64,000 nt of DNA from an uncultured Acidobacteriota bacterium (lineage in GTDB: Bacteria > Acidobacteriota > Thermoanaerobaculia > Gp7-AA8). The position numbers were made by a program, and so were the translations under genes. Position 1 is the stretch's first letter, and each line of letters begins with the position of its first letter. Below are positions 44,039-61,354 of the stretch, piece by piece. The notes beneath the pieces are model-generated. The model had not been told where the DNA came from. It did no database searches and was given only the letters and a program-made list of their open reading frames with translations. The DNA is taken from the NCBI GenBank assembly GCA_963822445.1, contig CAWGHO010000001.1:640001-704000 (forward strand). Reading direction: 5' to 3'.

Positions 44039-45344
44039 GTCGCCTCAGGATCTCCAGCAGGAGAAGGTCGCCCCACACCGGCAATCCGTCATCGCCATCG
44101 CGGGCCGCATTCTCCTCGGCGGCGCCCGGCAGGAACTCGATCCCGCACGGAAGCACCGGGAACTGAGGCTCCGCACCGGCTCGCATGGCCTCGCGGATCA
44201 TGGCCGAAAAGTCGCCGCGTCCGGCACCGTCCCATGCCGCGAACAGCGCCGCCGCGAGCCGCATGCACTGCTTCACAAGCGTTTCTCCCACGCCTCCCTT
44301 GAAGAAATAGTAGAGCTCCACCTTGCCGGTCTTGAACCTGGCGTGAAGCGACGTGTAAGCAATCATCATCCGGTACAGCAACCAGGTGAGACTCTCCAGC
44401 AGCTCGAGACGCCCGCTCCAGTTGCGCGTGTCCTGCACCAGACGCTCGATGTCGGATGCGGCGGCGACGAAGCTGCTGTCGATCACATCATCCGCGCCCG
44501 CGACCACGCGGCGAGCCAGCGCCAGCGCGGTCTCGCTGCTTTCGAGAAATTTGAACAGCGCCTGCTCGTCCCGGAGCTGCGCGACGTCGAGGTGCGTCCA
44601 GATGACGCCCTGCCAGGTGCGGCGCGAGTCCGGCCGGTTCGTCAGGTGAGCCGTGAGCTGACCGATGTTCTGGCGCGACAGAGTCGGATCGAACGGCACC
44701 ACGAACATCACCAGGAGCTCCGCGAACGCCATCGACCGGAGGTTGTTGAGGATGTCCAGCACGCGCATGTACTTGTCGGGCGTCGTCGAGCGCTGGTGGA
44801 AGACCTCGCCCTTCACGTCGACGCCCGCGACATCGATGCGATGCCGCCCGAAGGTGAGATCCATCCCGTGCAGAAGGACGGGGACGGCGGTGCGGGGATC
44901 GGGATTGGCGATCGTGTACGGCTCGACGAAGCGGTATGGATCGCGGCTGATCAACGTCGTCGGTTCGGCGACGAGGTACTTCTTCGAGGCCGGATTGAAC
45001 AGGCACTTGAGCCAGGTCGTTTTTCCCGCGGCCGGCAGGCCCGCGGTGATGAGAAGGACCCTCGACTTGGTGTCGCTCAGGAATTGCGGCGGGATCAGAG
45101 ACGAGCACTTGCTGCAGCGGCGGTGCGGGCTCGGCACCGCCGAGCGCTCGAAGGTGGGCTGATCCCATTCCAGGCGCGGCTCGTTGAGCGCAACCGCGGC
45201 GGTGGGCGGCAGGCCGCGGTGCTGTTTCCAGTGCGGACCGACCTGCTGATTCCAGGTGTCGGCCCGTCCGACGGGGACGGGATAGAAGCCGTCCCCTCCG
45301 CAGATCGGACAGATCTGCGCCGTTTTTCTTCCGAAGAGACTCAT
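44028..45344 (-). CDS. Zn-ribbon plus TRAFAC-class GTPase (DO-GTPase2-like)
   Basis: CPIC...CSKC, Walker A GLPAAGKTT, Walker B DVKGE and G4-like WTHLD. Confidence 0.7.
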   Translation of the reverse strand: MSLFGRKTAQICPICGGDGFYPVPVGRADTWNQQVGPHWKQHRGLPPTAAVALNEPRLEWDQPTFERSAVPSPHRRCSKCSSLIPPQFLSDTKSRVLLITAGLPAAGKTTWLKCLFNPASKKYLVAEPTTLISRDPYRFVEPYTIANPDPRTAVPVLLHGMDLTFGRHRIDVAGVDVKGEVFHQRSTTPDKYMRVLDILNNLRSMAFAELLVMFVVPFDPTLSRQNIGQLTAHLTNRPDSRRTWQGVIWTHLDVAQLRDEQALFKFLESSETALALARRVVAGADDVIDSSFVAAASDIERLVQDTRNWSGRLELLESLTWLLYRMMIAYTSLHARFKTGKVELYYFFKGGVGETLVKQCMRLAAALFAAWDGAGRGDFSAMIREAMRAGAEPQFPVLPCGIEFLPGAAEENAARDGDDGLPVWGDLLLLEILRRHAS

Positions 45345-48300
45345 GGTTCCATCAGCCGCAACAGCTCTGCCATGTGATTGTCGATGAATCGCCCGAGTTG
45401 TTCGGTCGCGAATCCTTCCGAGGACCGTTCCGCCACGAACGACAACGTGAGCGCGTTCTTTGCCCGTCCGTCGTCATCGCGGGCAATGATCACCATCAGT
45501 ATCCGCGACGTGGGCCGCTCCGGGTCGATGGTCGCGAGCGTCCCGGTCTTGGCATACACGTCATAGCGGTTTCGCAGCGGCTGCACGCGCGAGCGGATCC
45601 TGATGGCCGTCCCATCCTCGAGCACGCGCCACAGTCCGCGATCGAGTTTCGCCGCCGCCGCGGCCGCCTCTTTGTCGAACGCCGCGGTGCGCGACGCGAG
45701 CGGTTTCGCCGCAGATACCGGGACGATGTGCGCGACGACCGGCTTTCGAATCGCCCATGACGAAAACGCCGCCGCCGCACCGACGTTCGACCAGCGGCTG
45801 GACGCGCCGCCGAGGAGCACGGCGATGAGCTCGCGGGTCCGCGTAATGCGATTCAGGCTCAAATCGACAGCCTCGGGACTCACCACGGCGAGCGGCTCGA
45901 GCGCGTTGCTCGTGCCGAGGTCGTCGGATTCGTCGCCCGACCAGAAGGAAAGGTGACGGCGTCGCAGGTCGCCGTCCGCCGATGGCGCGCCTGTCCTAAC
46001 GCCGAACAGATCGCGCATCAGCGCCGCGACACGCTGTTCGTGGAGGTTCGCGACCTGCAGCGGCTTGTCGCGGGTGTGTCCCGTCGAGTCGGCGAGCGCG
46101 GGATAACGGTTCCAGGGAGTCGCGCTGGCGGTCAGCGATTCGCGATCGCTTCCCGCAGGCCCGCGGCCATCGTCGCCGATTCGATTGCCCTCGCCGCGCG
46201 CGAACCCGAGAAAGCCGAGGCGTGTGTGATAGCGGTTGTCGGAGGCGGCGAGGTACGTGCTGAAGTCGATCCAGCGAGCGCGTGGCGACACCTGCCAGCC
46301 CTTCCCGATTTCCGCGCCGAACAGCTCCTGTTCGTAACAGCGTTTCTTGACGACGCGGTCGCATGGGCCGTTCCGCGTCCACAGCAAGTCGTCGAGTCGC
46401 GGATGCACGATCAGCGCGGCCGTCGCCCAGAACGGCTTTGCGGCCGAGCCGATCTCGATCGCCGCGAGGTTATGGTCGACCGCATGCCGCGACGCGAGCG
46501 GCCGCGGCGTGGTCGCGCTGAGCCAGGAGAACGGCGGATCGCGCTCGATCCACGAGCGGCCGCCCGCGGTGACCGTGCGTGAGCTCCAGTCATCCCGGTC
46601 CGCCGCGCGCGGCCAGGAGCTCATCGCCAGCACCTCGCCCGTCGTTCCTCGAAGAATCGTCATCGCCACGCGCGGCGGCAGCGGCGCCGATGCCCCTTCC
46701 GCGATCAGTTTGCTGAAGCCTTCCCTCCCCGCCCCGTCCACAGTTGCCTGCGTGATCCGCTGCAGATCGGCATCGAGAGTGAGCTCGCTGATCCGCGGCT
46801 CGCGATGGACGCGGAGCAGCGCATCACCCGCGTGTCCCATCCATCCGAGGCCGAGGCGGCGCGCCTCACGCGTGGTCGCGTAGAACCACCGTCCCATCAC
46901 CCAGGCCCGTCCGAGGATTCGAACCGGGCCCTGGCCTCCCCGGATCGACACCGGCGGCAGTTCCTCCTCGCTACGCTCTTCGGCGAACGAGTGAACGATG
47001 TTGTAGTCGGGATTCCCCGTGACTTCGTACGCGATCTCCGCCGCGCCCTCGGCATCCTCTTCGACGCGGCGGATGGCGAAGACGCTCGGCCGCGTGCGCG
47101 CACCGCGATCGATCTCCCGCCGCCAAAGCTCGAACATCCGCGTGTAGTACTCCTCGGGATGCGTGAGGCCGTTGAAGAAGTCGGCCGGCAGCGACTCGCG
47201 GCCACCGTCCATCCGCAGCGCCACCGGAAGTGAGTTGAAGCGGAGCACTTCCGCCTCGAGCAGCGTCGCGCCGCCGGGGCGATCGGTGCAGTCTTCGCCG
47301 TTGCAGTAGCGGATCAGCTTCTTCGCCTCGTCGAAGCGAAGTGTCCCCGCGTCGCGGAGCTCGTCCACGCGGCGCAACAGGCGCGACCAGGTCAGGACGT
47401 CGAACTCGTTCGAGCGGACCGCGCGAATCGAGCCGCGCACGACGAGCACGGTCACGAGGAGAGCCGGGAGCAGCGCCAGCGCGGCATACTCGCGCTTGCC
47501 CAACCTGATCGCGAGTGGAATGGCGAGCGCGAACGCGAGCCAGGCGAAATCGTTCGTTGCCAGCGCGACGATTGCTCCGAGAAGGACGATCGCCGCGAGA
47601 ATGCCGCGCCGCATCAATCGCCGTCGCCGGTGCACGAAATCGGGATCGAAGATGGTCGTGCGCGTGACCGCGGTCTCCGGGAGCATCTCCACCGAATCGG
47701 CGCGAAGGCCGGACGACCAGAGCAGGGCCTGACACATCAGCCCGAGCAGAAGCGCCCAGCGGAGCGCGTCGGAGTTCGACGCAGTGGCCAGCAGCGGCAG
47801 ATTCCGTCCGCTGAACCACAGTTGGGAGACGTTCATCGCCGCATGCACGACTGCCTCGCCGAAAAATGCAGCGGCGATGGCGATCGCCAGGAGGTCGCCG
47901 ATTCGAAGCCGCGAGCGGCGCATCAGCAACAGAACGGCCGGCACGGCGAAGATCGCCAGGAGGAACAGCCCGCCGAAGATCCCATGCTCGGCGGAGATGA
48001 AGAAGGAGTAGACGCTGTCGTACTGGATCGTGTCCTGGCGGATGAACGATTGCGACGCGGGCGCGCGATTGAATCCAAGGCCGTCCCACCCGCCCTTCCG
48101 CACCATGGCCATGTGCTCCCACGCGTGCACGAGGGCATTGCGTACGCTGCCGGCGGTGACCGCCTTCGCGTCGCCTTGCGACGGCGCCTCGAGATCGAGC
48201 AGCCATTCCTGCGCCGCCGAGCCGTACTTCATCACCTCGACGCGGCTGAGAATGTGCTCGGTCATCCCCGGCGCGATCGCATATCCGCCGAGAAGGGCCT

Positions 48301-50620
48301 GGTAGGCGATGGCCACGCCGATCACCAGCACCGCCAGCAATGTGGCCGCGACCCGGAACGCAGGCGTGAGCAGAAGCAGCAATGCCAGCGGGAACCAGAA
48401 CGCGAGCACGGCGTAGATCGAGCCGAAGTCGCCGAGCATGCCGATCATCAGCGCGACCGGAGCAAACACCAGCGCGATGACGGCAGTGATCGAGTCGCCG
48501 TGGGTCGGCTCTGCCTGCGCGGAGCCGTCGCCGTCGAGGACCTGCAGTGCGTCCTCCGTTGCCGCGAGCGGCCGCGCCAGCAGGAGAAGTGCAGGAATCC
48601 CCACCATCCAGAACGGGGCGACGATCTGACGCACGTACTCCGGCGCGATGCGCGCGAGCACCAGCACGACCACCGTGCCGGCCAACCAGATCAGAACCAG
48701 TGGTCTTACTGCCGGCGCACGCAGCGCGGTCGTAACCCGCAGGACGGGTCGCGGCACATGACGCAGCCACTTGTGTGTGGATCGCGGCTGGGACAAGGTA
48801 TCGGCCAGCGTTCGCCAGAAGGTCCGGCCGGCTTCGAAGGTCACGCGATACGGAAGCTGCCAGATGATCGAGAGCGCGCGCAGGACCGTTCCGCCGAACG
48901 CCGCCGCGATCGCAAGCGCCGCCACGACGTAGACCACGAGCAGGAGTCGATCGAAGGGCGACGGCCGGAAAAGCTCCACCAGATTCGGCAGGACCTGCCG
49001 CGGCATGAGCACGAATTCGGCGATCGAGCCTGCCACCAACGCTACGGCGACGCCCGCGGTCACAGCCGCGCTGTGCCGTTCGAATTCGACTCCGGGCCGG
49101 TGATGCAGCCAAAGTCGGATGGCGAGGGTGATGAAGCCGGGCACGATCACCAGCGCCGCGAGCGTGCCGGCCAGCCCTTTGGCAGTCACCTCGTCGATCG
49201 CCGCCGGCGTGAGCAGATAGCGGACGGCGAGCAGCACGCGGATCAACAACACGGTCCAAACGGCGGCGATCACGCCGCCGATGCACCAGAGGTCGCGCAG
49301 CCGGAGGCGATGCATGCGGCCGAAGGCGATCGAAGCGACAAAGCCGGCGAGGATCAGCCACGCCAGTCCGAGCGCGAGCAGCAGCGCGCGCGGCGTCGGC
49401 AGGTCGCGGATGACGGTGATCGTGAGCAGCAGCCCGCGCGCGCGCGCCAGATTCGGCATGAGCAACGGCACGCGGATGCTGGAGAGAGCGCGGTTCGGCT
49501 CGAAGGCGGCGCCGAGCACCCCTTTGGTCCGGACAAAGCGCGGCGCGTCAGGGCCGGCCCGCGGCGTGAGATCGGCGCCGTCGCGAAACCGCGGCAGCCC
49601 GCCTTCAGAAAGCCGCAGCGCCGCGTCGTGCCGGAACTCCGCGGCTCCATGACCGAGCGGGAGAAGAAAGGTGTTCGCGCCGGCGGCGGGCTCGCGCCCG
49701 AACGAGAGCGTGCTCGCGTTCTCCGTGAATGGCGGGAGCGAGGTCGTGCGCGTCCACGGCGGATCGAACGAGAGACGCGGCCGGCCGCCTTCATCCCTCA
49801 GGCGCATGACCAGCCGGCGGCGCGGCCAGAGCACTTCGACGACCGCCGGCTTTCCGTCGCGCAGCGTAACCGGAAGCTCGCGCCACGATTCATCATCCGT
49901 AAGCAATCGCACTTCGTTCTTGTGAGGCCGAAGCACGCGGATCGACGCCGCCCACTCCTCGAGCGCACGCACGTTCGCGAGGTCGAGCTTTCCCTCGCGC
50001 CGCAAATCGTTCAACCGCGACTGGAGCAGCGAGTCGAGCGACCGGGCGCGCGTCGCATGCACTTCAGGCGGATTCATGATGACCATCGGCTCGGCCACCG
50101 GCGTGCGGCTGATGATCAGTTTCCGCCGCCGCAGGAATCCTTTGCGCCGCAGCTCGAGGGAGAACTTGCCGGCCTGCTTCGCGCCGCCGCCGAGGGTGAC
50201 CACGTCGCCGTTCGCGTACGCGCCGTCGACGCGTACGAGCGCCGTTCCGCCACGCGTCCGCAGCCGAAACCCACCACCGCCCGCCCGTTCCACGCGCACC
50301 TCGGGACGGAAACTGCCATTCGGCCAGCCGATGACCGCCGAGTGCTCCGCACCACCGATGGCGATGGTTCCCGACTCAGGGTCGGCGCTTTCGGCAGCGG
50401 TCCATGCGATCTGTGTCGACCGCGGCCACTCGGCCACCGACACCAGCGGCCAGAGCGTGAATGGCACCGCCGCGAGCGTCGCGACGAGAATCACGACGAA
50501 AGGCGCGATGTGACGACGGTTACCGAGCGACGGAAGGGCCTCTTCCCGATGCCGCAGTTCGAGCACCCACGCGATGCACACGTACCCCACGAGGCACAGC
50601 GCCAGCATCGGAATGGTCAT
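45341..50620 (-). CDS. Giant fusion: FHA-like domain, FtsW/RodA (SEDS)-like polytopic domain and class-B-like PBP transpeptidase, 1759 aa
   Basis: SEDS-like GDFGS, GGWDGLG, YDSVYSFFISAEHG and GRNLPLLAT; transpeptidase LTLDADLQ, TGEVLAM, SxxK (GSAAK ~46435-46450), SxN (SDN ~46240) and KTG (~45545). Confidence 0.8.
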   Translation of the reverse strand: MTIPMLALCLVGYVCIAWVLELRHREEALPSLGNRRHIAPFVVILVATLAAVPFTLWPLVSVAEWPRSTQIAWTAAESADPESGTIAIGGAEHSAVIGWPNGSFRPEVRVERAGGGGFRLRTRGGTALVRVDGAYANGDVVTLGGGAKQAGKFSLELRRKGFLRRRKLIISRTPVAEPMVIMNPPEVHATRARSLDSLLQSRLNDLRREGKLDLANVRALEEWAASIRVLRPHKNEVRLLTDDESWRELPVTLRDGKPAVVEVLWPRRRLVMRLRDEGGRPRLSFDPPWTRTTSLPPFTENASTLSFGREPAAGANTFLLPLGHGAAEFRHDAALRLSEGGLPRFRDGADLTPRAGPDAPRFVRTKGVLGAAFEPNRALSSIRVPLLMPNLARARGLLLTITVIRDLPTPRALLLALGLAWLILAGFVASIAFGRMHRLRLRDLWCIGGVIAAVWTVLLIRVLLAVRYLLTPAAIDEVTAKGLAGTLAALVIVPGFITLAIRLWLHHRPGVEFERHSAAVTAGVAVALVAGSIAEFVLMPRQVLPNLVELFRPSPFDRLLLVVYVVAALAIAAAFGGTVLRALSIIWQLPYRVTFEAGRTFWRTLADTLSQPRSTHKWLRHVPRPVLRVTTALRAPAVRPLVLIWLAGTVVVLVLARIAPEYVRQIVAPFWMVGIPALLLLARPLAATEDALQVLDGDGSAQAEPTHGDSITAVIALVFAPVALMIGMLGDFGSIYAVLAFWFPLALLLLLTPAFRVAATLLAVLVIGVAIAYQALLGGYAIAPGMTEHILSRVEVMKYGSAAQEWLLDLEAPSQGDAKAVTAGSVRNALVHAWEHMAMVRKGGWDGLGFNRAPASQSFIRQDTIQYDSVYSFFISAEHGIFGGLFLLAIFAVPAVLLLMRRSRLRIGDLLAIAIAAAFFGEAVVHAAMNVSQLWFSGRNLPLLATASNSDALRWALLLGLMCQALLWSSGLRADSVEMLPETAVTRTTIFDPDFVHRRRRLMRRGILAAIVLLGAIVALATNDFAWLAFALAIPLAIRLGKREYAALALLPALLVTVLVVRGSIRAVRSNEFDVLTWSRLLRRVDELRDAGTLRFDEAKKLIRYCNGEDCTDRPGGATLLEAEVLRFNSLPVALRMDGGRESLPADFFNGLTHPEEYYTRMFELWRREIDRGARTRPSVFAIRRVEEDAEGAAEIAYEVTGNPDYNIVHSFAEERSEEELPPVSIRGGQGPVRILGRAWVMGRWFYATTREARRLGLGWMGHAGDALLRVHREPRISELTLDADLQRITQATVDGAGREGFSKLIAEGASAPLPPRVAMTILRGTTGEVLAMSSWPRAADRDDWSSRTVTAGGRSWIERDPPFSWLSATTPRPLASRHAVDHNLAAIEIGSAAKPFWATAALIVHPRLDDLLWTRNGPCDRVVKKRCYEQELFGAEIGKGWQVSPRARWIDFSTYLAASDNRYHTRLGFLGFARGEGNRIGDDGRGPAGSDRESLTASATPWNRYPALADSTGHTRDKPLQVANLHEQRVAALMRDLFGVRTGAPSADGDLRRRHLSFWSGDESDDLGTSNALEPLAVVSPEAVDLSLNRITRTRELIAVLLGGASSRWSNVGAAAAFSSWAIRKPVVAHIVPVSAAKPLASRTAAFDKEAAAAAAKLDRGLWRVLEDGTAIRIRSRVQPLRNRYDVYAKTGTLATIDPERPTSRILMVIIARDDDGRAKNALTLSFVAERSSEGFATEQLGRFIDNHMAELLRLMEP

Positions 50621-50720
50621 GCGTACATCTGGCGCTTACACGCTCCCTGCCATCAGACGTTCTTACGGACAGCAGGTAAAACGGTTTGAGCTGAGGATCG
50701 CCGCGCTCGTCACGCGCTGG

Positions 50721-51185
50721 TCATTTGCCTTCGCGGAGCAGTACCCGCGCATCATCGAGCGTGTTGTCGATGGCTTCCTGACTGCGCACGAGGTCCGTCG
50801 ATGGAGGCGAACCATTGCGCACGGACGCGTCGAGCTCGCCGACCAGGTTGCGCAGATCGCGCATCGCTCCCTGCGTCTTCAGGCACGACTCGTTTTCACA
50901 CGTACACGCCGAATCAGCCTCGGAAATCCGCTGGTCGATGTCGGTCTTGAACCTGCTCCAGGCTTCGATGTCGTACGGCGGGTTCACGAAGCGCCCCAGA
51001 CCGTTGCCCCAGGCATTCGACGCAGCCGTTGCGCGGCCGACGCAGGAGTCGTCCGCGCGCGAATCAATGCTCGTCGCGGCGGACTTCGTGCTCAGGCGGC
51101 CCTTGATCCGCGGCGCGAGCTCCTTCCAGCCAAAGACGAGCAAGGCCAGGATGACCACCCACTTCACCAGCTTCCCAATTTCCAT
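50721..51185 (-). CDS. Membrane-anchored hypothetical protein with four Cys
   Basis: MEIGKLVKWVVILALLVFGW anchor; helical domain with SC...ACTCENESC. Confidence 0.65.
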   Translation of the reverse strand: MEIGKLVKWVVILALLVFGWKELAPRIKGRLSTKSAATSIDSRADDSCVGRATAASNAWGNGLGRFVNPPYDIEAWSRFKTDIDQRISEADSACTCENESCLKTQGAMRDLRNLVGELDASVRNGSPPSTDLVRSQEAIDNTLDDARVLLREGK

Positions 51186-51521
51186 GGCAATGAGTATGCG
51201 CGCGATCCTGACCGCCGGCCACTCCGCCACGGCCCGAGGACGAACGGAATCGCCTTGACGCCTTTCCAGACGGGTAGTCCGTACGCCGTCGGATCGATTG
51301 CAGAAAAGCAAGAATTTAGAAAGGAGGCAAAAACTCACCCCTTTTCCCAGTTTGTGAGGCGTGAGCTCGCATGACGAAGGCGTTGATCTGTTCTCGCGTC
51401 GCGAGTTGAAGTGAGTGTTCTTGCTCGAAGCAAGTGATGTGGCCGTAGCCTTAAAGTCAAAATCCCGGAGACGCCTTCGTGTTTGGTGTCGGGATGCCGG
51501 AAGTGTAGCTCCTCGGCGGAC

Positions 51522-51577
51522 TTTTCTTGGTTTCGGCTACGCCGAGGTAGGGAAATTGCCCGCCGATGCACCCCTAC
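51522..51577 (+). promoter_or_regulatory. Conserved leader element, copy 1 (palindrome TCGGC-TAC-GCCGA plus bulged hairpin)
   Basis: ttttcttggtttcggctacgccgaggtaggg matches 54853-54883 at 30 of 31 nt; ends 55 nt before ATG 51607. Confidence 0.7.
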
Positions 51578-51606
51578 ACAGGGGGATACCTCTGCGAGAG
51601 GTACGC

Positions 51607-52452
51607 ATGACGCAGACTCACCACGTCGTTCAGGTTCTCGGTGCCGCGCACGGACGCAAGACGCTGGCACATTGGAATACGGGTTCGGCATCGCGCCTGA
51701 TTGTCTTCGTTCACGGTTTTGGCGGGAAGCCTGACACCACTTGGCCGGATTTCCCCACGCTCCTCCGGCAGAAGGCGGGCCCTCCGCCCTTCGACTACGT
51801 CTTCTTTGGCTACGATGGGTTGCGCAAGCAAGCCACGAACAGCGGGAAGCAGTTTCTTGGATTCCTGGACCACTTTCTCGGTGACCCGGCGGCACTCGTC
51901 AACGCGACGATTCCGTCCCTCGAGAAGCGTAAATCGTTCACCTACGACCGCGTCGTGATCGCCGCGCATTCGCTCGGGGCGGTGGTCACGCGACGGGCGT
52001 TGCTCGATGCGCATGCCCTGCATGCGGCGGGGAAACTCATGCCCTGGCTGCCGACTGTGCGTCTGGTCTTCTTTGCGCCGGCGCACACTGGCGCATACGC
52101 CGCGGGGCTCGTCACCGAAGCACTCACCGATCAACCGTGGTACCTCGCGAAGCTGGCTGGGTATTACGCTCGTTTCCAGAGCCCGCTCCTCGCAGACCTC
52201 AAGGAAGGCTCGCAAGTGTTGCGCGCCCTTGCCGATGACACGGCCAAGATCACCGACCACGTGATGCCCCCACCGCACTATGTGCGCGCACGTGTCCTCC
52301 TCGCGGGGGACGAGATTGTCGTGAACAACACGCGCTTCGGGGTCGACCCGGTGGTGCCGCCGCAAGACGTGCTTCCCTCCAGCCACACCGGAGTCTGCAA
52401 GCCACGACGCATCGACCACGCCGCACTACGGGCCGTCTGGAACGAGCTATGA
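51607..52452 (+). CDS. Alpha/beta hydrolase, PGAP1/DUF676/SesB-like lipase, cytoplasmic
   Basis: IVFVHGFGG oxyanion loop, AHSLG nucleophile elbow, PAHTGA, GDEIV (acid) and SHTGVCKP (His); no signal peptide. Confidence 0.8.
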   Translation: MTQTHHVVQVLGAAHGRKTLAHWNTGSASRLIVFVHGFGGKPDTTWPDFPTLLRQKAGPPPFDYVFFGYDGLRKQATNSGKQFLGFLDHFLGDPAALVNATIPSLEKRKSFTYDRVVIAAHSLGAVVTRRALLDAHALHAAGKLMPWLPTVRLVFFAPAHTGAYAAGLVTEALTDQPWYLAKLAGYYARFQSPLLADLKEGSQVLRALADDTAKITDHVMPPPHYVRARVLLAGDEIVVNNTRFGVDPVVPPQDVLPSSHTGVCKPRRIDHAALRAVWNEL

Positions 52453-54485
52453 CGATCAAGGACGACAACCTCCGGGCGATCGATCACCACTACCTGACCG
52501 CTCGCGAACGCAGGGCTCAGCGGTTCCTAGCCACGGCCAGTCCAACGGCGCGGGCGCGAACGTTGGAGAGTCACCTCCTGCGCGAGCCGAGTCAGAGGGC
52601 GCAAGGTCTGCGAGACGATGTCGACTGCCTTCTCCGCTACTACAGCGTGCTCGAGCTGGCTTCCATCACCGGAGCGATTCCTGAGCTTCCCATTGCGACG
52701 CGCGAGATCGCACTCCGGAACCTCAACGATGAGTACCTCCGCCGGTACTATGAGCGGTATTACCCGCAACTGCTGCCCCAGCTTCTCCGTGCGCGTGTCA
52801 GTGGCGACAAGGTTCTCGGGGTTGACGAGGATTGCACAGAAGACTTTCTGCGGTTTGTGACGCTCGATGCGTCGCGCGACGACGACGACCTTGAGACGTT
52901 CCTGGGGTTTTTGGACGATTACGCGTACGTGATCGATGAGGAGACCCATGACCTGAGCAGCGTGGTGCGCACGATTGCGCACCCCAAGCGCTTCCTCGCT
53001 GCCCTGAGCGTCGACGACGAGGACCGGACGCCAACCGATGAGGGGGTGGTGGGCTTCCTCAGGTTTCTCTCGTTCTCTCGCGACCTCGAGCACCTCCTTC
53101 GCCAGGTCGACAGTCCCTTGGTTCGATCCTGCATCTGGCACTACTACGGGTACTGGTATCAGGAATTGGGCGGGCAAGTGCTTGGTGCACTGCTGACAGG
53201 CATCCACATCCTGGGCGGGTATGTTCCACGATCCGCCACAAACGCAGCGGAAGAGAGGGCGCTCGCGCGCACGCATGCAGATATGGCCGCTGCCGCAGCC
53301 TCGCTCCAGCGACTCACGTCGAGCGTGTACCGCGTGCACTTGGAAGAGGAGATCGATGGCGTTCTGTACCTCCGCATCATGGAGGACGCAGACGCAGGGT
53401 CCGCAGAGGCTCGAGCAGAGCCCGCGGAAGCGAACGAGAGAGCCCAAGCACAGAAGGTCCCCGTCGCCGAGCGGGAGAAGGTCTACAACGAGTTCAAGGA
53501 CAAGATGGGCGAGCTCGAACATGGTTACGTCAAGCGCTTGGAACGCGGCGACATGATCGTCGACCTCAACGGCAAAACCGAAGGGATCATCCCGCGGCAC
53601 CATCAGTCGCGCGCCGAGCGCTACTCGCAGGGCGACCCCATCAAGGCCGTCATCGTCGACGTGCACATGCAGGCGAAGGGACCGCAGGTCGTGCTTTCGC
53701 GCACCGATCCGCGCCTGCTCATTAAGCTGTTCGAAATGGAAGTTCCGGAGATCTACGACGGCACGGTGGTCATCAAGGGCGCGGTGCGCGAGCCGGGTGA
53801 GCGCGCGAAGATCGCGGTCATGTCCCGCGAGCGCGACATCGATCCGGTCGGCGCCTGCGTGGGCAAGAAGGGCTCGCGCGTGCAGTCCATCATCCGCGAG
53901 TTGGGCGGCGAGAAGATCGACATCATCCCCTGGCACGAAGACATCGTGAACTACGCGCAGACCGCGCTCGCTCCGGCGAAGATCAACCGCGTCTCGGTGA
54001 CCAGCGACGAGCAGGCGGACCGTCCGCACCTCGACGTCATCGTCGACAACGATCAGCTCTCGCCGGCCATCGGCAAGCGCGGCCTGAACGTGCGTCTGGC
54101 GGCGGAACTGATCGGCGCGAAGATCGCCATCAAGTCCGAGGAAGAAGTTAAGGGCGAGGTCGCCGACGCGCTCGCGGCCATGCTGCAGGAAGCTATGGCG
54201 GAGTCCCGCTCGCAGACCACCGTGGGCGAGATCGAGAACATGCCGAATGAGTGGGCGCAGCTCCTCGAGGACGCCGGCTACGACGACCTCGACTCGCTCA
54301 TCAACGCCTCCGTGGAAGATCTGATCACCATCGAAGGCGTGGACGAAGACATGGCCGTGCAGATGATCGAGCGGGCCCGCAAGCACGAGCAGGTCGAAGA
54401 GACCGGGCTCGACGAGGAGACTGAAGACACCGCCGAAGCAGCCAGCGAGCAATTCGAGGAGCAAGAAGTCGACAACGAGGCATAA
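52449..54485 (+). CDS. Unknown helical domain (~330 aa) fused to N-terminally truncated NusA (S1-KH1-KH2 plus acidic/HhH tail)
   Basis: From ~53451: QKV..AEREKVYNEF, PQVVLSRT, LFEMEVPEIYDG, REPGERAKIAV, DPVGACVG.KGSRVQ, GEKIDII and AIGKRG.NVRLA; continuous 678-aa ORF; ATGA overlap with the hydrolase. Confidence 0.88.
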   Translation: MTIKDDNLRAIDHHYLTARERRAQRFLATASPTARARTLESHLLREPSQRAQGLRDDVDCLLRYYSVLELASITGAIPELPIATREIALRNLNDEYLRRYYERYYPQLLPQLLRARVSGDKVLGVDEDCTEDFLRFVTLDASRDDDDLETFLGFLDDYAYVIDEETHDLSSVVRTIAHPKRFLAALSVDDEDRTPTDEGVVGFLRFLSFSRDLEHLLRQVDSPLVRSCIWHYYGYWYQELGGQVLGALLTGIHILGGYVPRSATNAAEERALARTHADMAAAAASLQRLTSSVYRVHLEEEIDGVLYLRIMEDADAGSAEARAEPAEANERAQAQKVPVAEREKVYNEFKDKMGELEHGYVKRLERGDMIVDLNGKTEGIIPRHHQSRAERYSQGDPIKAVIVDVHMQAKGPQVVLSRTDPRLLIKLFEMEVPEIYDGTVVIKGAVREPGERAKIAVMSRERDIDPVGACVGKKGSRVQSIIRELGGEKIDIIPWHEDIVNYAQTALAPAKINRVSVTSDEQADRPHLDVIVDNDQLSPAIGKRGLNVRLAAELIGAKIAIKSEEEVKGEVADALAAMLQEAMAESRSQTTVGEIENMPNEWAQLLEDAGYDDLDSLINASVEDLITIEGVDEDMAVQMIERARKHEQVEETGLDEETEDTAEAASEQFEEQEVDNEA

Positions 54486-54852
54486 GGACGAAGGTCGCAT
54501 TCTCCGGTTGGAACGAAGTCGGTTCAACGATCCGTGCATCTCGCCTCGCACGCCTGGATCGATGCTCCTGGAAACACACGGTTGTTCACCCTCGCCTTTC
54601 AGCATCGGGAGTGCTGACGCGAGATCTACAAGAGCCTGAATCGGTGCCGGACGAACGCAGGCGTTCGAAAGGCGACAGAGTACTTTGAAGCCCTCTTCGC
54701 AAGGCGTGGCGAGACTGCTTTTCCTGAACGGATCGCGACGGTCGTCGAGGCGAGCGTCGCAGAGGTGATCGATATCCGGGCGCACGGGGCGGTGCTGCTG
54801 TCACCCAGGAGAAGTTGTTAGTCAAGGATCTCCGGTCGCGCGTTCGTTCGTA

Positions 54853-54908
54853 TTTTGTTGGTTTCGGCTACGCCGAGGTAGGGGAAAAGTGTTCGTCAGA
54901 CACTCCTA
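54853..54908 (+). promoter_or_regulatory. Conserved leader element, copy 2
   Basis: ttttgttggtttcggctacgccgaggtaggg, ending 54 nt before ATG 54937; followed by TAGG..AGTGT/ACACT-CCTA hairpin. Confidence 0.7.
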
Positions 54909-54936
54909 GAACGTAATCGTCCGAAAGAGGTGACCG

Positions 54937-56658
54937 ATGCAGGCCGACCGCACACGTGTGTTGACGATCGTCGCGCAGGATCCGCTGTTCACGTATCCCG
55001 AGGGTCATCCCAAGGAAGGGCGCATCGTCACGGCGCGCATTCGCGTGCCGGCGGAGACACTGGCGGCCGGTCCGCGCGGGTACCGCGTTCACTGCATCGA
55101 CTACGACGCCACGACGAACACCTACTACAACACCAATCTGCCGGACGACGACCGCTTCGACGATCCCGACGACAAGACCATCCTCGGCGATCCGAGCTTT
55201 CACTGCCAGAACGTCTACGCCCTGGTCATGCACACGCTGGCGCGCTTCGAGTTTGCCTTGGGCCGCCGCGTGAGCTGGGGCTTCTACGGCCATCAGCTCA
55301 AGGTGGCGCCGCACGCGTTCGCGGAAGCCAACGCCTTCTACTCCGAAGAAGACCACTCCCTGCTCTTCGGTTACTTCCTTCCCGAAGGGGCGAAACGCCC
55401 GATCTTCACTTCCCTGTCGCACGACGTCGTCGTTCACGAGACCACCCACGCACTGCTCGACGGCCTCCGCACGCGCTACACCGATCCGTCGTCCCCCGAT
55501 CAGGCGGCGTTCCACGAGGGGTTCTCGGACGTCATCGCCCTGCTCTCCGTCTTCTCCTTGCGCGAGGTGCCGGAACTGCTGATCTCGCGGCCGGAGCTCA
55601 AGATCAACAAGCTCAAGGGCGATCTCATCCCGACCGCGCTCCTCACACCGGAGAACCTCCGCCTCGGCATCGGCGGACTCGCGGAAGAAGTGGGCAAGGG
55701 TCTCCTCGGCGTGCGCGCGAACGCGCTTCGCGAGTCGCTTGCCCTGGATCCAGAAACGACCGACATCAACGACTCCGAATTCAATGAACCGCATCGCCGC
55801 GGAGAGGTGTTCGTCGCCGCGATCATGAACGCGTTCATCGAGCTCTGGAGCCACGAGATCGGACGGATCGGCGCGCGCTGGTCGGACAAGGTCGATCGCA
55901 GCAAGGTCGTCGAGGAAGGGGCGCGGCTCGCCGACGTGATGCTCACCTCAGCCATCCGCGCACTCGACTACACCCCGCCGGTGGACCTCGAGTTTTCCGA
56001 CTACTTGAGCGCGTTTCTCACAGCCGATTCAGAGATCCGCACGGATGACCGGATGAATCTGCGCGGAATCGTCAGGAAGAGCTTCGAAGCGTACGGAATC
56101 AAGCCAATCGCCAAAGACGGGGTCTGGGACCACGCGGACAAAGGGCCGCAGACTCTCCGCTATGACCGCACCCATTTCGAGCCGATGCAGAGCGATCCCG
56201 ACGAGGTGTTTCACTGGGTCTGGGAGAACCGCCAGCAGGACTACCTCGGTCTCCTCGACGATGGTTACACCCGTATCCTCTCGGTCAGGCCGTGCACGCG
56301 TGTCGGTCCGGACGGGTTCCTCCTCCGCGAAACGGTCTCCGAGTATCTGCAGGTCCTGAAGATCCGGGCGGGCGACCTGCCCAAGTTCGGGCTGACGAAG
56401 CCCGAGACGATGCCCGGCGAGCAGGAGATTTACCTTTACGGGGGCGGCGCGCTGATCTTCGACGAGTACGGCCGCCTCAAGTACCACGTGTACAACCCGC
56501 TGCACGGCAAGAAGCAGATCGGCCGCGTCGACTACCTGTGGAAGCACGGCTACTACCGCGCCGATCGCTCGCAGCTCGCATTCGCCGGGATGCACCGGAT
56601 GCGCGTGATCGGTGGATTGGCTTTCGGCGAAGCGTCGGACTTGCAGGAGGTGTGGTGA
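54937..56658 (+). CDS. Cytoplasmic M4/M36-like (gluzincin) zinc metalloprotease
   Basis: ANAFYS, DVVVHETTHALLDG (HExxH), AFHEGFSD (third ligand) and EPHRRG; no signal peptide. Confidence 0.82.
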   Translation: MQADRTRVLTIVAQDPLFTYPEGHPKEGRIVTARIRVPAETLAAGPRGYRVHCIDYDATTNTYYNTNLPDDDRFDDPDDKTILGDPSFHCQNVYALVMHTLARFEFALGRRVSWGFYGHQLKVAPHAFAEANAFYSEEDHSLLFGYFLPEGAKRPIFTSLSHDVVVHETTHALLDGLRTRYTDPSSPDQAAFHEGFSDVIALLSVFSLREVPELLISRPELKINKLKGDLIPTALLTPENLRLGIGGLAEEVGKGLLGVRANALRESLALDPETTDINDSEFNEPHRRGEVFVAAIMNAFIELWSHEIGRIGARWSDKVDRSKVVEEGARLADVMLTSAIRALDYTPPVDLEFSDYLSAFLTADSEIRTDDRMNLRGIVRKSFEAYGIKPIAKDGVWDHADKGPQTLRYDRTHFEPMQSDPDEVFHWVWENRQQDYLGLLDDGYTRILSVRPCTRVGPDGFLLRETVSEYLQVLKIRAGDLPKFGLTKPETMPGEQEIYLYGGGALIFDEYGRLKYHVYNPLHGKKQIGRVDYLWKHGYYRADRSQLAFAGMHRMRVIGGLAFGEASDLQEVW

Positions 56659-58120
56659 TGGCGAAACCAACCGCTCTCGACATCCGCGCGTACAACATCG
56701 GCTTCGGAGACTGTTTCCTGCTCACCTTCCGGTACGGCGCGAAGGATCAGCGGCACATGCTCATCGACTTCGGGACGACCCGGAAGCCCGATGACGCCGA
56801 AAAGGATCACGAGCTGCAGATCGCGAAGGACATCGCCGGTGTCACCAGCAACAAGCTCGACGTGGTGGTGGCCACGCACCGGCACAAGGTCACATCAGCG
56901 GTTTCCGGACCCGGAAGAAGCCGGGCGACGACGAGGAGCCGGGCGACGTGATCCGCGAGTGCGCGAAAGACGCCGTGGTGATCATGCCCTGGACCGAGGA
57001 CCCCGAAGCCAAGACGGGCGCAACCGGTCCGAGGAAAAAATCGTTCGTCGACCAGCTCACATCGATGCACTCCTTCGCCGCGTCCGTGGTGCGGGAGATC
57101 GATCAGGACGTGGAAGACAAACTGCTGGCCGACGCGGACATCAACGACCCGACCGAGATCGCCGCCAGCACAGGGCCGAAGCACCGCATGCATCGCGAGG
57201 AGAGCGATGACTCCGAAGGCGGGAACTGGTTCTCGACGAAGACCCTGCGCAAACGAATCGCCTTCATCGGCGAAGACGCGATCAGCAACGTCTCGGCCGT
57301 TCGCAACCTCGTCACCATGAGCAAGAAGGAGAAGCGCCACTACGTCACCTACGACTACAAGCTCGACCTGCGCGCCGCTCTCCCGGGCGTGAAAGTGAGA
57401 GTCCTCGGTCCGCCGAGCGTCGACCAGTGGGAAAACGTGCAGAACCAGAAGGCCAGGAACAAGGATGAGTACTGGCACCTGCAGGAGGACTTCTGGCGGC
57501 GCCTCGCGCTCAGCTCGAACCTCGGCGTCAGCGACGGACGGGCCAAGCCGCTCTTCCCGCGCGCTCCCCAATGCGAGCCGGAAGAGCGCTGTTCGCACCG
57601 GAAAGCCTGCTCGCAGATCCCGCGCGCCAGCGAGTGGTTCGTGCGGCGGCTGCGCGGCGTGCGGGCCAAGCAACTCATGCAGCTCGTGCTGTCGATGGAC
57701 AGCGCCATGAACAACACCAGCGTCATCCTGCTCATCGAGGTCGGCGGCAAGAAGCTGTTGTTCCCTGGCGACGCGCAGTGGGAGAACTGGGAGTACGCGC
57801 TGGTCGGCGACGAGAAGAAAGCCGCGGCCAACCTGAAAGAGCTCGCCGACGTCGACGTCTACAAAGTCGGGCACCACGGCAGTCTCAACGCCACGCCGAA
57901 GAAGCTCTGGAACAACTTCTCCAAGCGGAGCGACAAGCCGAACGCAAAAGGCCGAATGCTCTCGATCATCTCGACGAAAAAAGGCGTGCACGCGCACTCG
58001 CCGCAGACCGCGGTTCCGCGGTCGACGCTGGTCCGCGAGCTGAAGTCGGAGACGAACTACCGCAGCACGGAGCCGGTCAAGCCGAAGGAGCTTTGCCTGG
58101 TGGAGACGATCGACTTATGA
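56658..58120 (+). CDS. MBL-fold (ComEC/Rec2-like) metallo-hydrolase, one-base deletion at ~56890
   Basis: YNIGFGDCFLL and MLIDFG; restoring one A gives THRHKDHISGF (HxHxDH); then NNTSVI, LFPGDAQ and YKVGHHGS; TGATG coupling to the protease. Confidence 0.82.
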
Positions 58121-58121
58121 C

Positions 58122-59247
58122 CTAGTGCGTGTGCGCATGGTCGTGGGCGTGATCGTGATGATGTTCATCCGCGCCGTGGGTGTGGCCGGCCATGCCGCTC
58201 TCCACCTGTTCGACGACCTGCCGGGCCAGCTCGCGGAACGCCTGAGCGGCCGGTGAGGCGGGATCGGCGACGACGATCGGCTCGCCGGTATCGCCACCTA
58301 CGACGACCTTCGGATCGATCGGAACCTCGCCCAGGAACGGCACGCCGAGCATCTCCGCGGTCTTGCGCCCTCCGCCGTGTCCGAAGATCTCCTCCCGCTC
58401 ACCGCAGTGGCGGCAGATGTAGTAGCTCATGTTCTCGACGATGCCGAGGATGGGCACGTTGACCTTGCGGAACATGGCCAGACCCTTCCGCGCGTCGATG
58501 AGGGCGACGTCCTGCGGCGTCGTCACGACGACCGCGCCGGTCAAGCCGGCTTTCTGCGTCAGCGTGAGCTGCGCGTCGCCGGTGCCTGGCGGCAGGTCGA
58601 TGATCATGAAGTCGAGCGTGCCCCACTTCACATCGGTCAGAAACTGGTCGATGCGCCTTCATCACCATCGGTCCACGCCAGATCACCGGCGTGTCGGGAT
58701 CGGTGATCAGTCCGAGAGACATCGTCTTGATGCCGTGGCGTTCCATCGGGACGATCTTCTCGTCGTGCTCGTCGATCTGCGGACGGCCTTCGATGCCGAG
58801 CATCATCTGCTGCGACGGTCCGTAGATGTCCGCGTCGAGCAGGCCCACGGAATGCCCGAGCGCGCGAATCGCCAGCGCGAGATTCGTCGAGACCGTCGAC
58901 TTCCCCACACCTCCTTTTCCCGAGGCAACGGCGATGCGGTATTTCACGCCACCGAGGGCTTGCGTGGGAGGAGCGGCGCCCTGCGGAAGCTGCGCGCCGC
59001 CGCGCGGACCGACCTCGAGATTCAGGCGAACGTCGCTGACGCCTTCGAGAGCGCGTACCGCTGCTTCGGTCTCGCGGGCGATCTGCTCGCCCACCGCGGG
59101 ATTCTCGGTCTGGAAGTGAACGGTGAGCGAGACCGTCGAGCCCTCGACGCGCACGTCGCGGACGAAGCCGAAGGAGACGATGTCCCGGGAGAGTCCCGGA
59201 AACTTAACTTTCTTGAGTGCTTCGAGTACCTGTTCCTGCGTCGGCAT
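58122..59247 (-). CDS. mrp: Mrp/ApbC (NBP35) Fe-S carrier ATPase, frameshift near 58653, His-rich tail
   Basis: [37 protein letters not shown] and [11 protein letters not shown]. Confidence 0.92.
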
Positions 59248-59998
59248 GCGGCTTCTCCTCCTGCAACCACCGTTCGTACGAGTCGCGGATGATCGGGATG
59301 GCCTCGTCAGAGGAGCCGACAACCTTGATCACGTCAAAGTCGGGAGCGCTGACCAGACCGCGCTCGAGCATCGTGCCGTGCAGCCAGTCGATCAGACCGG
59401 GCCACATTGTACCGACCAGAATCAGAGGATGCTGCTTCATGTGCTTGACCTGCAGAAGCTGCCAGACCATGAAGAGCTCGAGGGCCGTGCCGATGCCGCC
59501 GGGCATGACGATGAAGGCCGAGGAGAGGCGGATGAAGTGATGGAGCCGGGAGAAGAAGGTGCGATGACGGAACACCTTGTCGACGAACGGGTTAGCGGTC
59601 TCCTCGGTCGGCAGATGAATGGCCAGGCCGAACGAAAACGCCTTGCCCGTCTCCCCTTTTCCTTCCATCGCTCCCTGGTTCGCCGCTTCCATGAGTCCGG
59701 GGCCGCCGCCGGTGACGATGTCGACGCCCATCTTCGCCAGGTCGTGGCTCAGCTTCTTGACCTCTTCGTAGATCGGGTCGCCGAGGCGGATGCGGGAGCT
59801 GCCGAAAATCGAGACGCGGTAATGCTCGACCCGCTCGGGCTGGATCTGGTCGAGATCGTTGATCGTCTCCCAGAGCTGGTAGATGGCCCGGTCGAGGATG
59901 TACGTCGGGTCCGCGGTCGGCCGCTTCTTCGAAGCCTGGATGTTGCGCAGTTCCTCGAGCTCGGGCGTGGTCGTCTTACGGTCGTCTGAGTCAGCCAT
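59204..59998 (-). CDS. LOG family protein (nucleotide phosphoribohydrolase / lysine-decarboxylase-like)
   Basis: [20 protein letters not shown] and PGGIGTALE. Confidence 0.88.
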
Positions 59999-60011
59999 GG
60001 CGCGCCAGATA

Positions 60012-60044
60012 CTACTAACGACTAACCACTAACGACTAACGACT
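60012..60044. repeat. Solo heptamer array, exact reverse complement of 41551-41583
   Basis: ctactaacgactaaccactaacgactaacgact (33 of 33 nt); contains the SPOR gene stop codon. Confidence 0.9.
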
Positions 60045-60656
60045 CGTGATCCAGACCTCTTTCGAAAACTCGCGCAGCTTCGGCTCGGCGGCTCGGGCTT
60101 CCTGCTCGGTCGGGAACTTGACCCGCACGCGATACACGGGACCCTTTTCCGTCGCCGCACCGCGCTCCACGTACGCCGCGCTGAATCCCCCGTCGATCAG
60201 CTTCGCCGCGAAGGTCTCCGCGGTCTTCTGATCGCTGGTCGAGAGCAACTGGGCGTAATGCGGAACGGTCGATGTCGCCGGCGCGGGCTGTTCGGCCACC
60301 GGCGCGGCCTCGATGACTGTCGTTGTCGGCGCCGGTTCTTCCGTCAGCGGCACGACCGGTGCGGTGTCGGTGGGCGGCGCGGGCTCCTCGGCCTCTTCCT
60401 TCGCGAAATCGTCGGCTTCGACGCCGAGCTCCACGATCTGCCCCTGGTTTTTCTTCGGGATCAGCGCGGCCTCGGTCACGACCGGCGTCTCCTTCTGGAC
60501 CACGAGACGCTCGTCGGTCTGCCCTTTTCCGAGCATCAGGCCGAACGCGAAGGACGCGGCGAGCGACAGGAGCAGGAGCACGAAGGCCACGAAGGCCTGC
60601 CCCGCGGTGAGTGAAATCTCGTAATGCGACTGATCGTCGTGGTGCTGTTCGTCCAT
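60036..60656 (-). CDS. SPOR-domain cell division protein
   Basis: Single TM, Pro/Glu linker, then HYAQL...YRVRV SPOR pattern; GGAGG RBS about 10 nt upstream. Confidence 0.8.
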   Translation of the reverse strand: MDEQHHDDQSHYEISLTAGQAFVAFVLLLLSLAASFAFGLMLGKGQTDERLVVQKETPVVTEAALIPKKNQGQIVELGVEADDFAKEEAEEPAPPTDTAPVVPLTEEPAPTTTVIEAAPVAEQPAPATSTVPHYAQLLSTSDQKTAETFAAKLIDGGFSAAYVERGAATEKGPVYRVRVKFPTEQEARAAEPKLREFSKEVWITSR

Positions 60657-60678
60657 CTGACCCATCCTCCCCGGAACA

Positions 60679-61344
60679 TCACCTCGCGGGCGGCGCCGCG
60701 GCGTTCCAGTTTGTGTGATAAACGACGCCGTTGTCAAAGTAGACAGCCGACGCCCCTCCGTCCGCTTTCGGGTAAATCCACACGGAATAGACCCGGTTTT
60801 TCTGCACGACCTGCTTGATCCAGTCCTCGCGCGGCGATCCGACGAGGGTCTGCACATCTCCCTCTTTCATCCCCTGCTTCACGTTGGCGAACGCGGCCAT
60901 CGACACGTACCGCCGCTGTTCGGCGTGCGTGATGCGCTGCTGGGCGTCGAGGTTCGCCGGATCGATCTCCAGGGCCACGCGATAGAGCTCGATGGCCCGG
61001 TCGTAGCGGGAGAGGACGTTCATGTACTGATCGCCGACGAGGATTTTCTCGACGGCGAGGAGCTTGGCGGCGCGCGGATCGCCCGTGCGCTGCAGATACG
61101 CGTCGGCCTTGGCGATGAACGCGTTGTAGGGGATCTCGATCTTCTTCAGGTTGTCGAGGGCCAGCTCGATCTGCTCCTTGCGCGGCATCGACGCCGCCGG
61201 CTGCCGCTGGGCGTTCCGAAGTGTCTGAATCCACTGGTAATCGGCGGTCAGAAGGACCCACTCCCGATCGTTGGGCTGCGTGGGTGGTCCCGCGGGCGCG
61301 CAGGCGATTGTGAGCAGGGTGATGGCGAGGAGGGCGTTCCGCAT
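60679..61344 (-). CDS. Lipoprotein with TPR and BamE/SmpA-like domain
   Basis: Lipobox LTIAC; TPR YDRAIELYRVALEIDP; VKQGMKEGDVQTLVGSP...WIY...VYFDNGVV. Confidence 0.75.
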   Translation of the reverse strand: MRNALLAITLLTIACAPAGPPTQPNDREWVLLTADYQWIQTLRNAQRQPAASMPRKEQIELALDNLKKIEIPYNAFIAKADAYLQRTGDPRAAKLLAVEKILVGDQYMNVLSRYDRAIELYRVALEIDPANLDAQQRITHAEQRRYVSMAAFANVKQGMKEGDVQTLVGSPREDWIKQVVQKNRVYSVWIYPKADGGASAVYFDNGVVYHTNWNAAAPPAR

Positions 61345-61354
61345 GCGGTGGCAG

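Follow-up and report, generated by a model that had tools for sequence, protein, structure and literature searches.

A candidate defence module in an uncultured Acidobacteriota bacterium pairs an alpha/beta hydrolase with a helical protein that carries a second copy of NusA

Why does an uncultured soil bacterium of the Acidobacteriota keep part of NusA, the product of an essential gene, behind an unrelated helical domain and beside a hydrolase? The question is raised by a two-gene operon at positions 51607-54485 of a 64,000-nucleotide stretch of DNA, hereafter the window, which covers positions 640,001 to 704,000 of the forward strand of contig CAWGHO010000001.1 (assembly GCA_963822445.1; C1:640001-704000 of the source genome G000, 6.0 Mb in 3 contigs at 64% GC). 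Gene 1 encodes a predicted alpha/beta hydrolase, and gene 2 joins a helical N-terminal domain (N-domain) to a NusA-derived half. That pieces of essential genes have been taken up time and again by this two-gene module is well supported by the comparisons below, and we suggest that it may use them in defence.

The operon consists of two plus-strand open reading frames (ORFs), 51415/51607..52452 and 52449..54485, the second of which encodes 678 amino acids (aa) in the ORF list. The ATG of gene 2 (52449-52451) lies over the TGA of gene 1 (52450-52452), giving an ATGA overlap. We set the start of gene 1 at ATG 51607 (MTQTHH...) by alignment with seven homologs; the sequence GAGAGG lies 7 nucleotides (nt) 5' of this codon. 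The parts of the locus are as follows.

51522..51555, +: promoter-like 34-nt motif, copy 1, ending 52 nt before the hydrolase ATG; its function is putative
51607..52452, +: gene 1, 281-aa alpha/beta hydrolase, proposed effector, from Pfam matches below cut-off, fold and a conserved triad
52449..53387, +: gene 2 residues 1-313, all-helical N-domain, proposed adaptor or regulator, from an AF2 model and a family profile
53388..53450, +: linker rich in Ala and Glu, residues 314-334, from low model confidence at the end of the model and from homology breakpoints
53451..54395, +: NusA-derived part, residues 335-649, equivalent to canonical residues ~157-471, from TIGR01953, Pfam and 87% identity
53505-53687, +: S1 domain of the NusA-derived part (Pfam)
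53793-53996, +: KH1 domain of the NusA-derived part (Pfam)
54045-54131, +: KH2 domain of the NusA-derived part (Pfam)
54258-54383, +: helix-hairpin-helix (HhH) domain of the NusA-derived part (Pfam)
54396..54485, +: acidic C-terminal tail, residues 650-678, and stop codon, from the translation
54853..54886, +: promoter-like 34-nt motif, copy 2, ending 51 nt before ATG 54937 of the next module

The bounds of the linker follow from two comparisons: homology to the related operon of genome G014 stops at 53426, and homology to nusA begins at 53451. The G+C content of third codon positions (GC3) is 0.76 in the hydrolase gene, 0.75 in the N-terminal half of gene 2, 0.87 in its NusA half and 0.90 in the canonical nusA of the genome. 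An earlier note on this DNA, made by eye from the letters, had already described the anatomy, and much of its description stands. The two-gene operon with its ATGA overlap is confirmed by the ORF coordinates and the overlap sequence, the beginning of nusA homology at ~53451 by DNA comparison, the lack of rimP and infB beside the fused copy by the ORF list of the window, and the more host-like codons of the NusA half by the difference in GC3.

Residues 332-565 of gene 2 matched the NusA model TIGR01953 at 2.6e-83 (279.9 bits, cut-off 253.4). The match covers model positions 110-339 of 340 only, and Pfam shows no NusA_N (PF08529); the N-terminal domain (NTD), through which NusA binds RNA polymerase (RNAP), is thus absent from the window's copy. 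Pfam placed S1 (residues 353-413) and KH_5 (449-516) above cut-off, KH_NusA_C (533-561) below it and HHH_5 (604-645) just below it. The S1-KH1-KH2 RNA-binding core without the NTD, as the earlier note had read it, was recovered by both TIGR01953 and Pfam; in the translation an acidic tail follows.

The note had also taken this half for a captured copy. On contig 3 the same genome has the canonical rimP (155 aa) with nusA (520 aa), so that the fused NusA is a second, diverged copy and not the sole nusA. Between residues 326-649 of the fusion and residues 148-471 of the canonical protein the alignment is free of gaps, with 87% aa and 85.7% nt identity, at a synonymous divergence (dS) of 0.50, a non-synonymous divergence (dN) of 0.08 and a dN/dS of 0.16, values the note had proposed computing. 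Over a 315-codon core, the median dN/dS of fused against canonical copies was 0.14 versus 0.084 in 210 canonical-canonical pairs of the genus, about 1.7 times the canonical value. These codon comparisons indicate that the fused NusA copies are kept under purifying selection. At 254 sites that do not vary among 21 canonical NusAs from the genus, the window's copy shows 17 substitutions, including M295K in the GxxG loop of KH1, L361P and D382A; both KH GxxG motifs are retained. Three of the altered motifs listed earlier (GKKG for GMKG, QLSPAIG for QLSLAIG and KIAIK for KIDIK) do depart from the canonical protein, and the fourth, GLNV, is no difference because the canonical NusA of this genome also reads GLNV. 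The canonical protein carries a longer acidic tail than the fused copy. A second NusA piece in genome G018 proved to be no fusion but a canonical nusA-infB located where a contig ends.

Residues 1-325 of gene 2 matched nothing in Pfam, NCBIfam or PADLOC. An AF2 model of the N-domain folds with confidence into 18 helices (mean predicted local distance difference test score, pLDDT, 87.1; predicted template modelling score 0.82). A profile built from nine N-domain sequences recovered 596 representatives at E<=0.001 and 245 at 1e-30, each representing a cluster at 50% identity. Most members are 300-340 aa long and the N-domain is always N-terminal, with extensions of more than 60 aa before it in 0 of 159 family members. 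A pattern scan of genome contigs gave one locus, so that this route reaches close relatives only. A Foldseek search of the N-domain against the PDB returned nothing at E<=0.001, a profile search of PDB sequences gave chance-level matches (E>=0.13), and the ESM Atlas held no usable match. By these comparisons, the helical domain of 313 aa appears to be a previously undescribed family. A wide VIA search with residues 1-120 ranked the EP domains of plant PAD4/EDS1 on top (7xey_B, Z 8.7; 8zf0_C, Z 8.1; 4nfu_A, Z 6.6), at 4-9% identity over 112 of 325 residues and with residues 121-325 of the model barely covered. Such Z values lie inside the range common for helical models, so the likeness to EDS1 is a lead only.

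Gene 1 fell just under the Pfam cut-off for Abhydrolase_6 (E 2.4e-05, 25.6 bits against 26.3) and below that for DUF676 (E 0.0016, 18.4 bits against 20.3); there was no PGAP1 match in Pfam. S122 (in AHSLGA), D247, H260 and CKP at 264-266 are invariant in 7 sequences and likewise in an eight-locus alignment. The nucleophile elbow (Sm-x-Ser-x-Sm), the conserved acid and the histidine are all present in the sequence. The structural model has mediocre confidence overall (pLDDT 63.9) and pLDDT below 50 over residues 228-257. Its fold matched 50 esterase and lipase structures at VIA Z scores of 14.6-12.3, with most of the model covered, and gave 346 Foldseek matches at E<=0.001, with cutinases at E 4e-6; the sole PDB sequence match was the phospholipase PlaB (E 0.0015, 44 residues). 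As modelled, gene 1 is thus a generic alpha/beta hydrolase of esterase, lipase or cutinase type. The Ser-Asp-His hydrolase that had been recognized by eye is upheld by the invariant triad and the fold. The more specific idea of a PGAP1/SesB-like lipase keeps the alpha/beta-hydrolase fold, and its SesB link, which comes down to the DUF676 match below cut-off, stays tentative.

The hydrolase and the N-domain travel together, as the note had suspected they might. We found 11 loci with an N-domain gene, 9 of which have sufficient upstream DNA, and a gene 1 homolog lies directly upstream in 8 of these 9 (E 1e-31 to 1e-195), or in 7 of 8 when the window itself is set aside. The linkage persists down to ~30% N-domain identity. 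One of the eight linked loci, L009, comes from an unpublished genome; at the exception, L016, the N-domain gene is truncated at 242 aa. A model of the complex between hydrolase and N-domain protein scored 0.02 against a mark of 0.32 and counts neither way.

What follows the N-domain varies widely. At least 31 of 159 family members carry C-terminal tails of at least 60 aa, which we classified with Pfam and with tblastn against this genome. Three tails are NusA; four combine KH and S1 and have the C-terminus of this genome's PNPase as best tblastn match; two are S1 only; and two are receivers (Response_reg), one of them with a LuxR-type helix-turn-helix (GerE). Single tails are an RNAP alpha C-terminal domain (alpha-CTD; RNA_pol_A_CTD), GroES (Cpn10), a sigma-54 activator AAA+ domain (Sigma54_activat), a bactofilin, a caspase, a leucine-rich repeat (LRR), an AAA+RyR combination in the distant member P0139 and an HC2-like domain below cut-off, and the remaining 12 have no Pfam match. 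Outside the 31, P0077 bears sigma-70 region 4 (Sigma70_r4), and a metagenome locus, L012, adds a second caspase tail to that of P0022. The note's suggestion of swappable C-terminal domains is therefore borne out, and many of them are copies of host machinery.

Its description of NusA without the NTD is true of the window's copy and does not hold generally: P0012, L007 and P0162 carry near-full-length NusA including NusA_N. At the other extreme, the tail of metagenome locus L013 is NusA residues 374-471 only, the HhH domain, at 66% identity. The five NusA fusions (the window, P0012, L007, P0162 and L013) all share this C-terminal HhH. An apparent NusA_N-only tail in P0020 was rejected, as that sequence is only a piece of the 869-aa P0162.

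Tails also differ over short evolutionary distances. N-domains that are 80-86% identical to the window's bear three types of tail: NusA without the NTD in the window, near-full NusA after a linker of ~80 aa in P0012 and L007, and an unrelated 275-aa domain in P0013 of genome G014. The last (L005 655-1479, minus strand) copies a stand-alone family of ~240 aa that starts MPYKVQFVGLVCF and ends ...NTGCC, has no Pfam match, is present in 18 of 35 genomes of the genus at up to 4 copies per genome, and is also seen at loci L054-L058.

We built a tree of the NusA core from 26 rows, excluding G002 (unpublished), G009 (internal stop) and the class-level genomes other than G038 and G039. The fused NusA of G444 is sister to the canonical nusA of G444 (support 96/83, 94% identity, dS 0.20). 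The window's fused NusA falls among the genus's canonical copies with a branch length of 0.14, where the median is 0.034; the branch of P0012's copy measures 0.5. Monophyly of the fused NusAs was rejected (p value of the approximately unbiased test 0.0004 with three rows and 0.0002 with two), which argues for repeated capture or for gene conversion that recurs with the resident nusA as donor. By one route or the other, the NusA part tracks the resident gene.

The module is patchily distributed. Among 61 relatives, 3 carry the N-domain, in 2 of 23 genera; a sample of 401 genomes spread over the phylum also yields 3. In the window, the operon lies in an island. Both flanks (44036-50620 and 58122-62000) show conservation across the genus and occupy different places in other genomes; the 7.5 kb between them are variable, holding a 205-aa ORF, the hydrolase operon and a pair made of an ORF with an HExxH motif and a gene of metallo-beta-lactamase (MBL) fold. 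The operon's immediate neighbour at L007 is a Phage_integrase gene (3e-34), and related contexts have NACHT or FGE-sulfatase genes close by.

How might these parts work together? We favour, at even confidence, a defence module in which an adaptor with a host-derived bait or sensor controls a hydrolase effector; if so, it is most likely an anti-phage system of the abortive-infection type. The hydrolase, presumably cytoplasmic, would be the effector, the helical N-domain protein the adaptor or regulator and the C-terminal domain an optional sensor. The adaptor would bind and restrain the hydrolase, and the host-like NusA domain would act as a bait or nucleic-acid sensor. An invader's factor that normally targets the real NusA would bind or modify the fused NusA; this engagement would alter the adaptor and release the hydrolase, which would then kill or arrest the cell. 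The points that speak for this reading are the conserved hydrolase core, the variable C-terminus, the swapping of tails over short range, the tracking of the resident gene, the patchy island and the precedent for hydrolases as effectors. The bait or sensor interpretation of the earlier note thus gains its anatomy, the second-copy status, the hydrolase linkage and the swappable tails; its phage sensing, hydrolase activation and membrane damage stay conjectural, and the defence and bait roles, the binding of adaptor to hydrolase and the hydrolase substrate are inferred.

Several observations pull the other way. Neither gene matches PADLOC-DB 2.0.0 (2023) at E<=0.01, no known defence gene is fused to the operon or lies within it, and about ten loci yielded only two flanking recombinases, one of them a weak case. 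Many of the tail examples are metagenomic singletons. We rejected the idea that every tail copies a housekeeping protein, given that the G014 tail copies a patchy accessory protein; nor do the tails with caspase, LRR and AAA+RyR qualify as host baits, so 'decoy' cannot fit all tails. Most recognizable tails bind nucleic acid, so a nucleic-acid sensor fits as well as a bait, and with the majority of the family lacking a tail, the core must function without one.

A wider generalization is conceivable, and we hold it as a tentative conjecture. Bacteria would have integrated-decoy sensors, a widespread family in which the adaptor of a lipase-like effector time and again captures host pieces hijacked by phages, stays matched to the originals and uses the pieces as baits (NusA, the KH-S1 part of PNPase, RNAP alpha-CTD, sigma-70 region 4 and GroES), the list of tails would be a list of phage-targeted hubs, and the pair of lipase and helical protein would be a functional analogue, conceivably a distant relative, of EDS1-type modules. 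Lambda N binds a C-terminal acidic-repeat HhH domain of Escherichia coli NusA, T4 AsiA binds sigma-70 region 4, T4 Alt and ModA modify RNAP alpha-CTD, and several phages depend on or replace GroES. Against this background, the tail list reads like a set of phage targets.

The strongest competing view treats the tails as targeting devices, host-derived domains (NusA, PNPase KH-S1, alpha-CTD, sigma-70 region 4, GroES) that would dock the adaptor and hydrolase on RNAP, nascent RNA or the chaperonin. There the enzyme would attack a substrate belonging to the complex, as a conflict effector or regulator. Most identifiable tails bind RNAP, RNA, DNA or GroEL, three relatives retain the RNAP-binding NusA_N, and the KH GxxG motifs are kept in copies under purifying selection, all of which would suit docking. 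It sits less well with a window copy that lacks the RNAP-binding NTD, with an L013 tail reduced to the HhH, with receiver, LRR, AAA+RyR and caspase tails, which are sensor and signalling parts, and with an esterase- or lipase-like enzyme that presumably has no obvious substrate on RNAP. We consider docking rather unlikely, and note that the present evidence separates neither it nor nucleic-acid sensing from a decoy.

A role outside defence strikes us as improbable. Here the module would be an accessory regulator, an esterase or lipase under stress or signal control that receives its inputs through the fused domains, with NusA linking it to the status of transcription or RNA. In its favour, common signalling parts make up the receiver, LuxR-type and sigma-54-activator tails, most members are tail-less, and PADLOC gives no match. 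Set against this are the patchiness within a single genus and the variable island, the different tails on N-domains 80-86% identical, the existence of caspase and AAA+RyR tails, the integrase and NACHT-type neighbours and a fused NusA that has been re-captured or homogenized with the resident gene.

We think it highly improbable that the module belongs to a mobile element that manipulates its host through dominant-negative mimics, for example an NTD-less NusA that titrates the partners of NusA, to the advantage of the element. The tyrosine recombinase next to the operon in L007, the patchy, variable island and the closeness of the fused copies to the host protein would agree with it. However, tblastn with P0001 found no match among 50,697 phage and 72,556 plasmid records (IMG/VR was not among them and distant members were not tried), no other mobile-element genes were seen in the 7.5-kb island by ORF list and domain scans, and the strictly conserved hydrolase partner would be left unexplained.

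An artefact, whether a chimeric join in the assembly or a pseudogene in decay, is barely credible as the source of the fusion: no public run contains the junction, but the 678-codon frame is unbroken on a 1.58-Mb contig, dN/dS is 0.14-0.16, a copy that differs from the canonical nusA at 14% of bases is not a mis-joined canonical read, and independent assemblies contain fusions of N-domain and NusA (P0012, L007, P0162 and L013). In the public-read search the best run contained 0.11 of the sampled words, and no RNA run was listed as containing the locus. Contigs from four public runs gave coverage only from 53444 on, with loose ends at 53451 that continue into canonical nusA; these runs therefore contain the nusA of relatives rather than the fusion.

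The surroundings of the operon offer further observations. Copies 1 and 2 of the promoter-like motif form a 34-nt direct repeat, D3 (51522-51555 and 54853-54886, 94% identical). The motif (...TTGGTTTCGGCTACGCCGAGGTAGGG..., 34-40 nt) occurs four times in the genome, each time ~45-52 nt before a start codon, the other copies being C3:335333-335370 and C2:2189827-2189866, and may be a common promoter or operator of accessory modules. A 280-bp element upstream of the hydrolase (51273-51554) recurs in two genomes of the same genus at 82-84% identity (L049 3001-3281, L050 2444-2724, L051 3001-3284). In G012 the element stands just before a different, LCAT/PGAP1-like lipase gene, followed by a gene for a 1153-aa NACHT and FGE-sulfatase protein; the remaining two copies precede unrelated genes. 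It has no Rfam match, nor was any Rfam match found within 50500-51800 or any tRNA within 49000-59000. The FGE-sulfatase domain that ends the NACHT protein of L049 is also found at the C-terminus of a 630-aa protein encoded at L007 8763-10658 (minus strand), downstream of the full-length-NusA fusion.

Directly downstream of the operon, 54937-58120 holds a second accessory pair. Its first gene, an ORF of 573 aa, contains the HExxH motif HETTH and matches nothing in Pfam; its second is the MBL-fold gene. With a motif copy of its own in front, the HExxH ORF forms part of another module, and parts of the pair were found at ~66-77% DNA identity in G029, G024, G013 and G021, where the hydrolase operon was not listed. 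The MBL-fold gene (~56650-58120) gave weak Avs1a, LmuA and PDC-M48B-like matches and is split into two frames near 56885, in its HxHxDH region (...ATHRHK / HISGF...), through either a frameshift in a pseudogene or a mistake in sequencing. The layout of the pair resembles the modules of protease and MBL effector described in PMC12642450. At the right edge of the island, a 169-aa ORF (58122-58631, minus strand) matches ParA/NUBPL (Mrp-like) at model positions 108-245 of 246 only and so may be truncated or have a mis-set start. The left flank includes a genus-conserved 1759-aa ORF (45341-50620, minus strand) without a Pfam match at E<=0.001, and a 2448-aa ORF lies at 31683-39029 (minus strand).

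How does the proposed defence module compare with known systems? Like canonical NusA, the fused copy has S1-KH1-KH2 and HhH, 87% identity and both GxxG motifs; unlike it, it lacks the NTD, lies outside rimP-nusA-infB with the hydrolase upstream and an unrelated gene downstream, follows 334 unrelated residues and has changed at 17 invariant sites. PMC12642450 presents alpha/beta hydrolases of unknown substrate as latent death effectors beside partners with diverse sensor domains. Our module resembles those protease-licensed modules in setting an alpha/beta hydrolase beside a partner with diverse domains, and includes caspase tails in P0022 and L012; it differs in having no protease domain in the operon and a partner core that is helical and non-enzymatic-looking, the hydrolases being compared here by description only. 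The NACHT protein bNACHT25 monitors a real host protein, DnaJ, according to PMC12169576; both systems would use host housekeeping machinery as a read-out of infection, and ours would do so with a dedicated, built-in duplicate.

As in plant EDS1/PAD4/SAG101, a lipase-like alpha/beta hydrolase is combined with an all-helical part. Unlike EDS1, the two are separate genes rather than one chain and the catalytic triad is conserved; the hydrolase fold searches gave no EDS1-specific signal. The earlier note knew of no described system with this architecture, and our search of the literature, which did not extend to supplementary family lists, likewise found no description of the family, the architecture or NusA-type antiphage baits. 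Were the defence reading correct, no other prokaryotic immune family would have been found before to detect infection by means of host-target copies that it carries itself, a strategy that, to our knowledge, is so far known from plant nucleotide-binding leucine-rich repeat receptors (NLRs). The tails would then reveal host hubs that phages attack in poorly studied phyla, and the N-domain would be a new type of adaptor fold, linking an alpha/beta-hydrolase effector to diverse sensors. Should the defence role fail, the capture of essential-gene fragments and a second nusA under purifying selection are still unusual and well supported.

In plant NLRs with integrated decoys, such as RRS1-WRKY and RGA5-HMA, a copy of a target domain is fused into the immune receptor. 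Our module differs from these in that genes 1 and 2 encode no NB-ARC, NACHT or STAND NTPase, the carrier being a helical domain with a separate hydrolase gene, in that pathogen binding is presumed here, and in that its tails are not all host copies. It is like them in that the fused NusA duplicates a stand-alone host protein, to which it is 87% identical and among whose canonical copies in the genus it nests, and in that a fused copy of a host domain varies among close relatives and stays close to the real protein.

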